Virus record (IMG/VR): IMGVR_UViG_2734482571_000007
Source: a virus
Taxonomy: Duplodnaviria > Heunggongvirae > Uroviricota > Caudoviricetes
DNA: 39,690 nucleotides
Strand: one strand, 5' to 3'
The notes beneath the pieces are model-generated. The model worked only from the letters and a program-made list of their open reading frames with translations. It was not told the origin of the DNA and ran no database searches. This document shows, in pieces, positions 1 to 39,690 of the stretch (positions are counted from its first letter, which is position 1; the number at the start of each line of letters is the position of its first letter). The translations under genes were made by a program, and so were the position numbers.

Positions 1-111
1 CTTTTCACGCAGCCAGCTTTCCAGGGATTTCAGCAGCGGTTTCGTTTTCAACTGACGTTCGGCAAGGCGCTGTTTCAGCAGGAAGATGTCGTCAGAAGAG
101 ATGTCGTTCAT
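1..111 (-). CDS. Putative IS66-family transposase TnpC, N-terminal fragment running off the window (MNDISSDDIFLLKQRLAERQLK...)
   Basis: ATG at 111-109 on the minus strand opens a frame that continues past position 1; it sits where tnpC would follow the IS66 tnpB seen at the other flank; amphipathic Leu-rich N-terminus. Identity is inferred from position, not recognised outright. Confidence 0.4.
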   Translation of the reverse strand, partial: MNDISSDDIFLLKQRLAERQLKTKPLLKSLESWLREK

Positions 112-211
112 AAGCCCGTATTTTACCGGGCTTATTCTGTGACAACCAGGATAAAGAGATTTACAGCATGGTCAGGGAGGTCAGCAGCCGCTTAGGCTGT
201 CTATAGCGCGG

Positions 212-295
212 CGATTTTTTTGATACCGATTTGCATTTCATTTGATACCGCTGAAAAACGCCGATACGCAACTTATTTGATACTAAATCGGCGCT
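212..295. repeat. Prophage right-end transposase-binding repeats (three copies of a TTTGATAC core at 219-226, 241-250, 286-295)
   Basis: Same core occurs three times, inverted, at the opposite prophage end (38661-38820); placement matches Mu attR R1-R3 just outside mom. Confidence 0.6.
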
Positions 296-329
296 TTTCT
301 TTTGAGTTTTAGAATGAGTTTTTAAGCGT

Positions 330-1067
330 TCATTCACTCTCTTTCAAACCAGTTTTAACTGTTTGTGGTTTTGGGTAAGGCTGGACTTTGAATAGCTTTG
401 TGTTAAGGCGTTTTCTGGCTCTCTTGTCCAGAAACCGGATGTAACGAAACTGACGGAATTTATGAACACTGGCTCTGTCGATATTAGCCCGCAGATGTTC
501 ACCTCGCTGTCCTCCTCGTTTGATTGCATTCTTGCAAATCTCGTGATACCACTCGCCATCAAGTTCATAGAATGTTGTTTCATGACTGCCTACATAATCA
601 AAATTGCTTGCCTGGTACACGACACCAAGACAGCCACAACGCTCATCTGCAAACGACTGAACCCACTGCACCTGCGGATAAAGTTGTCTGATTAGTTTGA
701 GCGCGTAACTGATTGCCCTTGATTCGGAGTTTCTCGGCATACAGTCATGCAGCCATAACCGGTTAAGCTCCATATATTCGCGGTTCTGCGTGCCAGTTAC
801 GACGCGTGCACCATTGTTTGGATTAAGGGCATAACCCCATTGCATTACGCCAACCAGCTCCCGTTCTGAAAATATGCCCAGATGAAGGTAGGAATTATTT
901 ACGAAACGATGGCTGTAATGTTTATTGACGACGACCAGCCGGGCCAGCCAGCAACTTATTGTCTCAACCCGTAACTCACGGGAGCCATAACCGACGATAT
1001 TGTCGTTATAGTGAATAAGTTCAGGCGTGCTGATGATACGGGATGTAACTTGCTTTCTGTTCCCCAC
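330..1067 (-). CDS. mom: Mom-like DNA modification protein; start uncertain (possibly GTG near 1067, inside the com overlap)
   Basis: Long ORF directly downstream of, and overlapping, a Com-like zinc-finger gene at the prophage end, as in Mu com-mom. The six-frame ORF 330..1262 overlaps com in another frame, so the first ~65 codons are probably not translated. Confidence 0.65.
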
Positions 1068-1221
1068 GACAGGATTTCCTTGTGTATGTGGGGTGCTCTG
1101 TGGCGCTCTGAGATGTGATTTGATTGAGGGTTTTACAGCGCGGACATTTAACTTCCAGATAACTGAAGCTGGCTCGTGCCAGTAGCTTGTTACAATGTCG
1201 GCACCGTATGTTTCGATACAT
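1021..1221 (-). CDS. com: Com-like zinc-finger translational activator of mom (66 aa from the internal Met, [14 protein letters not shown]...EVKCPRCK...EHPT)
   Basis: C-x2-C ... C-x2-C spacing and the IRC..CNKLL / CPRCK / EHPT motifs match Mu Com; strong AGGAGG Shine-Dalgarno before the ATG at 1221. Confidence 0.8.
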
Positions 1222-1264
1222 GGCCGCATAACCTCCTGCTTTGTTGTTGATATCTTTATCACTC

Positions 1265-1289
1265 AATCGATCGACAAAAACGATCGATT
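1265..1289. promoter_or_regulatory. Perfect 9-bp inverted repeat AATCGATCG-N7-CGATCGATT with two GATC Dam sites, upstream of com
   Basis: Palindrome read directly from the sequence; it lies in the com leader and next to a 200-bp AT-rich divergent intergenic region. Mu mom is controlled through upstream GATC sites. Confidence 0.4.
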
Positions 1290-1477
1290 TGATTTATTTA
1301 ATTGATACAACAAATAACACGAAATGTCATTAGCGAAAATTTATGAGTTTGATCACTAATTTTAAACGGTGCTGTAACGCATAAGTGCTGAATGATTGTA
1401 CATTTGAATACCGCAAAGCAAACAAATCAACTAATTTATAGAAGTCAATTGGTTAATTGCCAGCGTAAGAGGCTGCT

Positions 1478-1771
1478 ATGGACAATCATGTAACGACGAG
1501 AAATCGAAAAATGATTGAAAATGCGGAAATCTATAATGATTATTTTTCCGATTATTCAGATGCCTGCAAATACAGTTCGAGTGCGGGAGAGTTCATATGC
1601 TTCAACTTTTTTATTAAATCTTATGTTTTTCCTCCACAGCAAGAAGATGGAGGTGTGCCACCTCCTGAAATCACTTTGCACCGTATAGCCTCCGTCTCAA
1701 TGATGGAGCAACAGGCTAATGAGCTGTATAGCATTCTGGGAACGATTCTACAAAAGCGTGAATCGGACTAA
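1478..1771 (+). CDS. Hypothetical protein (97 aa), divergent from com-mom
   Basis: ORF with an AAGAGG ribosome-binding site 6 nt before the ATG; AT-rich upstream region; no recognisable domain. Confidence 0.45.
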   Translation: MDNHVTTRNRKMIENAEIYNDYFSDYSDACKYSSSAGEFICFNFFIKSYVFPPQQEDGGVPPPEITLHRIASVSMMEQQANELYSILGTILQKRESD

Positions 1772-37857: not shown

Positions 37858-38042
37858 GATTCATCTATCCTAAAAAGTTACGAAATTTGATAACTAAACT
37901 TAGTTATCAAGTTTGATATAAGTATTGATCCACTTCTGCTTCATGTAAAGCAAAAAAAACATCTTTCTTTTGTCTATTGTGGATCAATGGTTGCTGACAA
38001 CACTAAAAGTTAATAATTTCAAATTGATAGGAAGAAAAGAAA
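37858..38042. promoter_or_regulatory. Divergent operator/promoter region between ner and c
   Basis: Perfect palindrome TTGATAACT-N6-AGTTATCAA (37887-37910); 10-bp inverted repeat ATTGATCCAC / GTGGATCAAT (37925-37934, 37979-37988), each holding a GATC; several TTGATA motifs. Confidence 0.55.
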
Positions 38043-38588
38043 ATGAACAAGCAAACAACAACATCTCTTTCTTTTCCTGGTGGTAGAAAAGAAAGCATTG
38101 CTGAGCGTCTGAAAAGGCTGATTGGCTCCCGCAGCGTCAGAGCTGCAGCAAGAGATTGGGGGCTTTCATTTTCAACACTAAACAATTATCTGTCTCGTGG
38201 CACTGAGCCATCCTTAAGTGTCGCCCTTCAGATTGCGTCTATCGAAGGAGTAAGTGTTGAGTGGCTATGTGGATTCAGTGATGCATCACAAGTGAATCGG
38301 TGTGAGATCAAGGAAAATCAAGATGAAAGCAAGAAGATAATTATGACGATTATCAGCGCACTTGATGAAAAAGACTTAGAGCAGCTATCGAAAAATTTGG
38401 TTCTGAATGGAGCCAAGTACTTAGCTCGGTTGTTAGAGCCTGAAAATCAAGATCTAATCCGCTTAGAAGGAAGGAAAAGAATAGCTGCATTACAGCTTGA
38501 AGGTATGTCTGACGAACGCGTCAGAGAGATTTTGGAAGAAACTGAGAGAAGTCGCAAATCTAACGCGGTAGAACCAAAAGCGGGTTAA
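38043..38588 (+). CDS. c: Mu c-like repressor
   Basis: 181 aa; divergent from ner-A-B as in Mu; helix-turn-helix-like N-terminus; own ribosome-binding site. Confidence 0.7.
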   Translation: MNKQTTTSLSFPGGRKESIAERLKRLIGSRSVRAAARDWGLSFSTLNNYLSRGTEPSLSVALQIASIEGVSVEWLCGFSDASQVNRCEIKENQDESKKIIMTIISALDEKDLEQLSKNLVLNGAKYLARLLEPENQDLIRLEGRKRIAALQLEGMSDERVREILEETERSRKSNAVEPKAG

Positions 38589-38608
38589 TAGCATTAGCCC
38601 GCATTTTG
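38580..38608 (+). terminator. Rho-independent terminator overlapping the c stop codon
   Basis: 7-bp stem GCGGGTT/AGCCCGC (one G-U pair), 9-nt loop, then ATTTTG. Confidence 0.5.
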
Positions 38609-38654
38609 CACTATATCGAGTATTTCGCATTGTTTGGAACGCCTTAAAAGACTA

Positions 38655-38824
38655 AAACCACAGTATCAAATGAGTTGCCGATTTTATAATAAATGACTAA
38701 TTATTGCACAATCGGTATCAAATAGACCTTATCCGCACATCTAGCCATCACCTGTTTTATTTCAGTATCTTACAGGTGATTTCACCTCCTTTCACTAAAC
38801 CCCTTGTCGGTATCAAATGATTCA
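38655..38824. repeat. Prophage left-end transposase-binding repeats (three copies of the GGTATCAAAT core at 38661-38670, 38711-38722, 38807-38820)
   Basis: Inverted copies of the repeat at 212-295; inward-reading consensus GAWTYWTTTGATACCGA at both extremes. Confidence 0.6.
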
Positions 38825-39145
38825 CCTGGTTATATGTCGCCAGTCGATACCTTCCAGCAGCATCGCCAGCTGCGCCTGTGTAAGGAACACTTTGCCATCA
38901 CGGGCTGACGGCCAGGCGAAGCGCCCACGCTCCAGCCGTTTGGTCAGGAGGCACAGTCCGTCACTGGTGGACCACAGCAGTTTAACCTGACTGCCGCTGC
39001 GGCCCCGGAAAATGAAAACATGGCCGGACATGGGATCGTCTTTCAGCGCCGTCTGTACTTTCGCAGCCAGGCCGTTGAAGCCATTTCTCATATCGGTGAT
39101 ACCGGCAACCAGCCAAATTTTGATCCCGGAAGGTAACGGGATCAT
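38822..39145 (-). CDS. tnpB: IS66-family TnpB (Orf2)
   Basis: IWLVAGITDMRNGFNGLAAKVQ...FIFRGRSGSQVKLLW...GLCLLTKRLERGRFAWP matches the IS66 Orf2 pattern. Confidence 0.85.
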   Translation of the reverse strand: MIPLPSGIKIWLVAGITDMRNGFNGLAAKVQTALKDDPMSGHVFIFRGRSGSQVKLLWSTSDGLCLLTKRLERGRFAWPSARDGKVFLTQAQLAMLLEGIDWRHITR

Positions 39146-39543
39146 CGCTTCAGTTCCTGTATCAGCAGAGTCAGGAGCTTTTCGCTGACATTGCCATTGA
39201 AGCGGAGCGTCCCGTGCCGGAACGTTACCTCACAGCTGATACTGAGGGTTTTCGGGTCCTCTGCGAGCGATTCTGGCTGTTCGGCAGCTGCATCGAGAGT
39301 CACAGGAAGTAGCTGGGGGCTCTCTGAAGAAGGTAATAGCAGCTTTCCCTCGCGCCATTGTTGTCGCCATTTGAACAACAGATTGGCGTTAATGCCATTT
39401 TCAAGAGCAAGTTTTGAGATGGATATCCCGGGTTCACAGGAGGCAGCAACGAGCTGCTGTTTAAATTCGGGAGGATAATTAGGGCAGCCTTTTCGCCTGC
39501 CGGGAGTCACATTTTTCTGCATATCTGACACTTTGGTTCCCAC
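39142..39543 (-). CDS. tnpA: IS66-family TnpA (Orf1)
   Basis: GISISKLALENGINANLLFKWRQQW motif; overlaps the tnpB start. Confidence 0.8.
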   Translation of the reverse strand: MGTKVSDMQKNVTPGRRKGCPNYPPEFKQQLVAASCEPGISISKLALENGINANLLFKWRQQWREGKLLLPSSESPQLLPVTLDAAAEQPESLAEDPKTLSISCEVTFRHGTLRFNGNVSEKLLTLLIQELKR

Positions 39544-39607
39544 TACTTATTTGGTGGACACCACTTTGTCTAATTCGTCAGATTCTGACCAGACGGTTCA
39601 GGCTGCT

Positions 39608-39690
39608 GGTGATGCTGCCAACTTACTGATTTAGTGTATGATGGTGTTTTTGAGGTGCTCCAGTGGCTTCTGTTTCTATCAGCTGTCCCT
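39608..39690 (+). mobile_element. insA: IS1 left end (terminal inverted repeat GGTGATGCTGCCAACTTACTGAT; insA GTG start at 39663), continues past the window
   Basis: Sequence matches the IS1 left terminus and the start of insA (MASVSISCP) as recalled. Confidence 0.8.

Follow-up and report, generated by a model that had tools for sequence, protein, structure and literature searches.

The stretch of DNA analyzed here, referred to below at its full length of 39,690 nucleotides as the window, is the virus record IMGVR_UViG_2734482571_000007. Read from its right edge, it contains the end of an IS1 copy, tnpA and tnpB of an IS66-family element, a 38,633-bp Mu-like prophage of the type represented by Sp18 of Escherichia coli O157:H7 Sakai, the tail of tnpB, and the start of tnpC. 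An initial annotation, made from the sequence alone, had described a Mu-like prophage that splits the IS66 element near the tnpB/tnpC junction with no detectable target-site duplication (TSD). The flanks were compared with two intact reference elements, one in O157 PV15-279 (L002) and one on the pAA plasmid of O104:H4 (L008), and together with the prophage ends they resolve into the following features.

1 to 111, minus strand: tnpC with an internal deletion, codons 1 to 18 (ATG at 109 to 111) fused in frame to codon 379 onwards; the open reading frame (ORF) exits at the left window edge
65 to 74: crossover zone of the 1,080-bp tnpC deletion, at imperfect 18/19-bp direct repeats GTTCGGC[A/C]AGGCGCTGTT
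112 to 160: tnpB-tnpC intergenic spacer, mapped onto the annotated ISEc8 in L002
161 to 201, minus strand: 3' remnant of tnpB, comprising the last 12 codons and the stop and including the left TSD copy, from the mapping to L002 and L008
198 to 201: left TSD copy, TGTC, corresponding to the overlap of the flanks at L002 3142 to 3145 and L008 3340 to 3343
202 to 38834, minus strand: Sp18-type Mu-like transposable prophage, 38,633 bp, 5'-TATAGCG...GGTTATA-3'
202 to 290, plus strand: mom-side terminus (attR equivalent), with closely spaced TTTGATAC repeats at 219, 241, and 276
38650 to 38834, minus strand: c-side terminus (attL equivalent), with TTTGATAC spread out at 38810 to 38817, 38715 to 38722, and 38663 to 38670
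38835 to 38838: right TSD copy, TGTC
38835 to 39145, minus strand: 5' part of tnpB, codons 1 to 103
39142 to 39543, minus strand: IS66-family tnpA, 133 aa from GTG or 126 aa from the ATG at 39522
39544 to 39605: non-coding IS66 end next to tnpA
39606 to 39607: two unassigned bases, CT, separating the shortened IS66 end from IS1
39608 to 39690, plus strand: first 83 bp of IS1, starting with the terminal inverted repeat GGTGATGCTGCC... and cut by the window edge

Both flanks of the prophage are closely related to ISEc8-type elements. The side carrying tnpA and tnpB (38835 to 39605) is 99.2 to 99.7% identical to them, in agreement with the initial annotation, and the other side (57 to 201), which includes the 3' end of tnpB, the spacer, and the start of tnpC, is 98.6 to 99.3% identical to the same elements. 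In both L002 and L008, the matches to the two flanks overlap by exactly 4 bp, TGTC, and this tetranucleotide stands directly outside the prophage on both sides of the window. When the flanks are joined with a single TGTC, they form a 912-bp ungapped alignment at 99.2 to 99.6% identity and a TnpB of 115 aa is recovered, with its C terminus restored as ...WRQPKRLLTSLTML*. The insertion point lies between codons 103 and 104 of the 115, 37 bp upstream of the stop codon. As present in the window, the tnpB ORF (38822 to 39145) closes with four phage-encoded residues, HITR*.

These alignments place the prophage within the IS66 element as previously described, although inside tnpB rather than near its junction with tnpC, and they show the flanks to be contiguous in intact elements apart from the 4-bp overlap. 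The prophage ends had been put at about 215 and 38781, 13 and 53 bp inside the phage; the actual ends are 202 and 38834. The tnpB frame, which had been thought to run about 16 codons into the left flank, continues for 12 codons and a stop once one TGTC is removed. It is correct that the ranges 112 to 215 and 38781 to 38845 have no 5-mer in common. Imprecise end assignment, one of the causes suggested for this, did contribute, but the chief cause is the 4-bp duplication made by this phage family, which defeats a search for shared 5-mers even with the correct ends. The other suggested causes, rearrangement and recombination between insertion sequence copies, are unneeded, and the exact 4-bp overlap and the clean reconstruction of tnpB speak against them. 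The locus is best read as a simple insertion with a 4-bp duplication, TGTC, flanking a prophage that occupies 202 to 38834.

The duplication length was examined across the prophage family using the window and nine insertions from complete genomes. All ten independent insertions have exactly 4-bp direct repeats outside TATAGCG...GGTTA(T/C)A, as listed here by strain or copy, interrupted gene where one was identified, and repeat.

Window, IS66 tnpB: TGTC
HH35: CGTA
M3, flgL: TGCG
S1-CAM-01-A: CGTC
M18: GGTA
Sakai Sp18, sorM: TTTA
NCCP15648: CTAA
CI5, xdhA: CACA
STEC1587, paaA: TCAC
O157 Z1825, an RHS gene: AGCT

Phage Mu produces a 5-bp duplication, and a 2021 survey lists scars of 5 bp (Mu) or 6 bp (B3, Leptospira) for transposable prophages (PMC8705779). 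It could be supposed, then, that the duplication in the window is truly 5 bp (CTGTC or TGTCG), with one copy mutated or one end set wrongly by a single base, and one mismatch would indeed reconcile the two. Against this, none of the ten insertions departs from 4 bp. In the first seven insertions tabulated, the fifth base agrees on one side in two, which is chance level; for the three insertions included afterward, the check was of the 4-bp repeat itself. Only the 4-bp assignment makes the inverted termini symmetric, and three empty sites align without gaps only if 4 bp were duplicated. These sites are the intact tnpB of IS66 and the uninterrupted flgL and sorM of other strains; the flgL and sorM insertion sites, rebuilt with one copy of the 4 bp, matched them ungapped over 100/100 and 98/98 positions, respectively. 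A mutated or misplaced 5-bp duplication is therefore extremely improbable. Models with a 5-bp, 6-bp, or 2-bp (TA) duplication fit neither the junction sequences nor the empty sites.

The ends of the prophage were defined from the ten insertions together with 14 further genomic contexts of the mom end. In each of the 14, the sequences diverge immediately past ...GCGCTATA, which fixes the mom-side terminus. The family combines a short duplication with insertion at many unrelated sites, ten different ones in the tabulated set and 14 more in the mom-end contexts. In genome CP179977.1, a prophage of this family has its mom end joined directly to internal IS1 sequence (CTGAACAGGAGGGACAGCTG), and the window is for that reason not unique as a case of this family inserting into insertion sequence elements.

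A different explanation for the locus is that the flanks come from two IS66 copies joined by recombination or inversion, with TGTC present by coincidence. IS66-family elements and this prophage are both multicopy in many E. coli genomes, the tnpC gene of the left flank is rearranged, and the surroundings are rich in insertion sequences, all of which would suit such an origin. However, the flanks abut to the base in intact elements and have the 4-bp overlap typical of the family, and both are nearest to the same element types (with 1 to 2 and 3 to 6 mismatches). Recombination between copies would not place a duplication correctly, and we regard a two-copy origin as very unlikely.

The junctions might also have been created during assembly by the collapse of repeats at IS66 or IS1. 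The window does resemble a draft contig, with IS1 at its right edge and a rearranged IS66 element at its left. An exact search of one-genome-per-species contigs found no second instance of the left junction, and neither it, nor the junction of the tnpC deletion, nor the exact IS66-IS1 junction is present in complete E. coli genomes or PLSDB plasmids. The right junction is better represented. An identical tnpB-prophage junction is found in CP176614.1, a complete genome of 4.93 Mb. The 47.9-kb contig CWZC01000017.1 matches the window at 100% over a length of 10,869 bp, stops 7 bp deeper into IS1, and extends approximately 8 kb beyond the left end of the window. Public assemblies contain the product of the junction, a truncated TnpB of 107 aa (...WRHITR*), in 110 indexed blocks. 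These occurrences support the right junction as real and not an assembly artifact. Since a mis-join also would not give a correctly placed duplication, an artifactual origin of the junctions has hardly any likelihood.

The preferred reading, to which we assign a probability of roughly 93%, is ordinary DDE transposition of a complete Sp18-type Mu-like prophage into tnpB of an ISEc8/ISEc22-type IS66-family element. The phage-encoded A/B machinery, which is present in the prophage, would carry out the transposition into tnpB; the transposase would cut the target with a 4-nucleotide stagger, as the scars suggest, and gap repair after the staggered cut would yield the duplicated TGTC. TnpB is left without its last 12 residues, and tnpA and tnpB stand 38.6 kb apart from tnpC. 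Several points weigh against this reading. The 4-nucleotide stagger is deduced from insertion scars, and the left junction was found in no independent assembly. Because tnpC continues past the window edge, and the second inverted repeat of IS66 also lies beyond it, a single complete IS66 copy before the insertion is presumed. Four base pairs is also a short repeat, expected by chance at a fixed position with a frequency of 1/256. The duplication is nevertheless called because of its exact position, the empty site, and the rule that holds across the family. The arrangement is an ordinary nesting of one mobile element in another, and the apparent anomaly is accounted for.

The prophage is one of three lesions in this IS66 copy, and the tnpC deletion is independent of it. 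With the prophage set aside, tnpA, tnpB, and tnpC are recognizable in the right order, with tnpB split and tnpC deleted internally and leaving the window. The ORF left of the prophage does start as tnpC, as had been proposed, but only for codons 1 to 18, after which it jumps in frame to codon 379. Positions 1 to 74 match an internal part of an ISEc22-type tnpC (as on pAA) at 100%, displaced by 1,080 bp. The deletion zone was read from a three-way alignment of window positions 1 to 110 with the proximal and distal L008 copies of the repeat. The direct repeats that flank the deletion both encode QRLAE, at TnpC residues 14 to 18 and 374 to 378, and the deletion is in frame, with 360 codons (19 to 378) lost. 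The predicted mini-TnpC that would result is approximately 152 aa in length; when it was used as the query of a homology search, this exact protein was not among the results. Another IS66-family protein in public assemblies (P0003; 179 aa, 29 member sequences) likewise consists of about 18 N-terminal residues and the C-terminal third of TnpC, and because of this similar architecture, deletions that create mini-TnpC proteins may recur.

At the other end of the element, IS66 homology stops at 39605, 9 bp before the tip of the inverted repeat, with ...GGCTG in place of ...GGCTGTACGCTTAC. The IS66 terminal inverted repeat (GTAAGCG...) is incomplete on the tnpA side, and the other repeat lies beyond the window. 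Elements of the IS66 family generate an 8-bp TSD. IS1 begins at 39608, which is 64 bp past the GTG that opens the 133-aa tnpA ORF, as initially annotated. Its inverted repeat and neighboring sequence are both present in the 83 bp within the window; this stretch is identical to IS1 copies annotated elsewhere, and its boundary is fixed by L010 and L011. In CP176614.1, IS66 homology breaks at the same base (L016 8260 to 8290, window 39605) next to a different neighbor; unrelated sequence follows the break, and a gene for an IS110-family transposase lies just upstream. In that genome, the IS66 tnpA is also interrupted by a 1,264-bp IS3-family element (L016 8542 to 9805) with a 3-bp junction overlap. 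The IS66 tip may have been lost before IS1 arrived, or this position may be a hotspot. 

Compared with its relatives, the copy in the window has a tnpA, tnpB, and TnpC N terminus 99.2 to 99.6% identical to those of ISEc8-type copies and a distal tnpC 100% identical to that of ISEc22-type copies (O104:H4 pAA). Unlike either, it has a split tnpB, a tnpC without codons 19 to 378, and a tnpA-side repeat that is 9 bp short. The IS66 copy is dead, because tnpB is truncated and split, tnpC carries the deletion, and the tip of the inverted repeat is missing. The prophage, tnpC, and inverted-repeat lesions may have arisen in any order. The tnpA and tnpB genes read toward the c end of the prophage and share their direction of transcription with the early operon ner-A-B, and read-through from an IS66 promoter into the phage early region is conceivable from this layout.

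Because its early genes lie on the minus strand, the prophage has its c (left) end at the right of the window. The octamer TTTGATAC occurs seven times against 0.84 expected, and six of these occurrences are at the two ends, three at each in inverted orientation, where they form putative transposase-binding sites. In phage Mu, sites R1 to R3 are close together and sites L1 to L3 are spaced out. Eight copies, those of the window and seven relatives, carry TA...TA as terminal dinucleotides, and CA is found at the c end in two O157 copies only (Sakai and Z1825). The end of phage Mu, read for comparison, begins TGTATTG. The Sp18-type copies have neither the 5-bp duplication nor the 5'-TG...CA-3' termini that a strict definition of Mu calls for.

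Identification of the prophage as Mu-like, made in the initial annotation, is upheld by Pfam matches for A, MuB, a Ner-like helix-turn-helix protein, Mom, and the invertase, and by 99.5% identity to the HH35 prophage. In the ORF listing, a minus-strand block of phage genes extends from about 300 to 38,600, with a divergent repressor and ner followed by A and B at the right. The genes and segments assigned within it are as follows.

330 to 1067, minus strand: mom (Pfam Mom, E = 1.6e-77; RefSeq annotation of a 100%-identical region)
1021 to 1221, minus strand: com (RefSeq annotation of a 100%-identical region)
4696 to 5268, minus strand: Gin-like serine invertase (Pfam Resolvase and HTH_7)
5339 to 5487 and 6523 to 6671: inverted repeats of a G-like invertible tail-fiber segment
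34522 to 35463, minus strand: MuB-like AAA+ transposition ATPase (Pfam Phage-MuB_C and AAA_22)
35537 to 37624, minus strand: transposase A, 695 aa (Pfam HTH_Tnp_Mu_1 and Mu-transpos_C)
37627 to 37857, minus strand: Ner-like regulator (Pfam HTH_35)
38043 to 38588, plus strand: repressor, divergent from ner (Pfam HTH_3; annotation of the HH35 prophage)

The full gene set includes A, B, Ner, the repressor, Mom, Com, Gam, Mor, a gpT-type head, the portal, and tail genes. In a broad sense the prophage is Mu-like, with adjacent A and B genes, repeats at its ends, varied insertion sites, and both regulatory and morphogenetic genes. It is colinear with the annotated Mu-like prophage of E. coli HH35 (L003), at 99.48% identity over 38,641 bp, and the indels that distinguish the two are solely in frame, compensating, or at a gene start, with no frameshifts. 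Because of this colinearity and the lack of disrupting indels, the prophage looks intact, judging from its sequence.

The invertible segment spans about 1.3 kb (5339 to 6671), is bounded by 86-nucleotide and 50-nucleotide inverted repeats, and holds a tail-fiber C terminus and assembly genes. Between the invertase and com/mom is a gene absent from Mu (2556 to 4610, minus strand), which encodes 684 aa and combines a SASA (sialate O-acetylesterase-like) domain with DUF6645; this cargo or tail-accessory gene is indexed in 4,464 assembly blocks. Look-ups of its protein and of the baseplate V protein, both of which are very common, led only to other lineages. A tRNA-like sequence of 80 nucleotides (21298 to 21377, plus strand) lies between the virion-morphogenesis and minor-head genes on the opposite strand. 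In a local scan it scored 31.0 bits on the Rfam tRNA model (gathering threshold, 29). Its T arm is canonical and its anticodon region oversized, and in relatives the RefSeq annotation is tRNA-OTHER. Neither ARAGORN nor an Rfam scan of the whole window picked it up, and neither reported any RNA gene.

Sp18-type prophages were found in 233 of 5,426 complete E. coli genomes (approximately 4%). Sp18 itself has been reported to be intact, not circularized, packaged, and variably located among strains (PMC2669165, PMC7430833, PMC10132054). The window prophage has its gene order and mom-end terminus in common with Sp18 of O157:H7 Sakai and its relatives among the Mu-like prophages of Shiga toxin-producing E. 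coli, such as Phi804-3 and the CC119 Mu-like phages. Nucleotide identity to Sakai Sp18 is mosaic, at 76 to 96%, and both copies are flanked by 4-bp duplications. The two differ at the c end (TA in the window, CA in Sakai and Z1825), in the repressor region, and in several tail and early modules, and the window prophage is far closer (99.5%) to prophages such as that of HH35, carried by commensal and clinical E. coli, than to Sp18. No close isolated phage was present in the phage collection searched, where the only good matches were "inserted Mu-like phage" regions of two Shiga toxin (Stx) phages; SfMu matched over about 600 bp at approximately 71%.

The organization held in common with Mu is extensive. 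Both have repressor/ner, A, and B near one terminus and com/mom near the opposite one, and both carry Gam, Mor, a gpT-type head, and a Gin-type invertible tail-fiber segment. Each terminus has three transposase sites, tight on the mom side and spread on the c side, and insertion is near-random with a short duplication. Unlike Mu, the prophage has a 4-bp and not a 5-bp duplication and TA...TA and not TG...CA termini, nucleotide similarity to Mu-type phages such as SfMu is confined to short stretches at approximately 71%, and the A protein is only 23% identical to MuA and gives no DDE_2 or HTH_Tnp_Mu_2 hit. TA-TA ends have been reported in some Leptospira prophages only, and whether they exist elsewhere was posed as a question (PMC8705779). 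The Leptospira WETA1-type prophages have TA...TA termini like those of the window prophage (PMC8705779) but leave scars of 6 bp and fall in a distinct clade related to B3, compared with 4 bp and an E. coli host here. No description of the duplication length or TA ends of Sp18-type prophages was found in the literature searched, subscription literature being outside its reach.

The transposition proteins have diverged from those of Mu to different degrees. In pairwise alignments, the 23% identity of A with MuA compares with 48% for B with MuB. No match of A to Pfam DDE_2 or HTH_Tnp_Mu_2 was obtained at E ≤ 1, whereas MuA scores 2e-136 and 3e-48, respectively, on the same models. The A protein does give sub-threshold rve, rve_2, and rve_3 signals, and against PDB it matched the N-terminal domain of MuA and the catalytic cores of retroviral integrases, the MuA core not being among the hits. 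The core of A is similar to the integrase cores of retroviruses and insertion sequences. Pairwise alignment with MuA puts the first two candidate acidic residues of A at approximately D308 and D374. E414 is a candidate for the third, picked by eye and not aligned to E392 of MuA, and a distance of about 40 residues between D374 and E414 would be an integrase-like spacing, compared with a wider one in MuA. It is reasonable to suppose that the divergent catalytic core is the basis for the different stagger.

At the locus itself little is at stake, as this is a routine nested insertion inactivating an IS66 copy that has two other lesions. The 4-bp duplication and the TA termini are firmly observed across the family; the pattern may be intrinsic to the transposase, and it may already be documented beyond the literature searched. 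It is tentatively suggested, at somewhat less than even odds, that Sp18-type prophages form a mechanistically distinct branch of transposable phages, characterized by a 4-bp duplication, tolerance of TA in place of CA, a MuB-like ATPase, and a weakly rve-like A protein with no DDE_2 hit. In practice, the Sp18 family can be delimited by TATAGCG...GGTTA(T/C)A together with a 4-bp duplication, and a rule of 5 bp and TG...CA is unsuited to it. If the suggestion is true, prophage-finding rules that expect 5- or 6-bp scars would miss or mis-bound this family, as in the initial annotation, and TA-TA transposable prophages would exist outside Leptospira, in a tractable host, which would answer the question raised earlier (PMC8705779). 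The natural TA/CA polymorphism at the c end, in a phage reported to be packaged in E. coli (PMC2669165), would offer a simple system in which to learn how Mu-like transposases set the terminal dinucleotide and the cut spacing.

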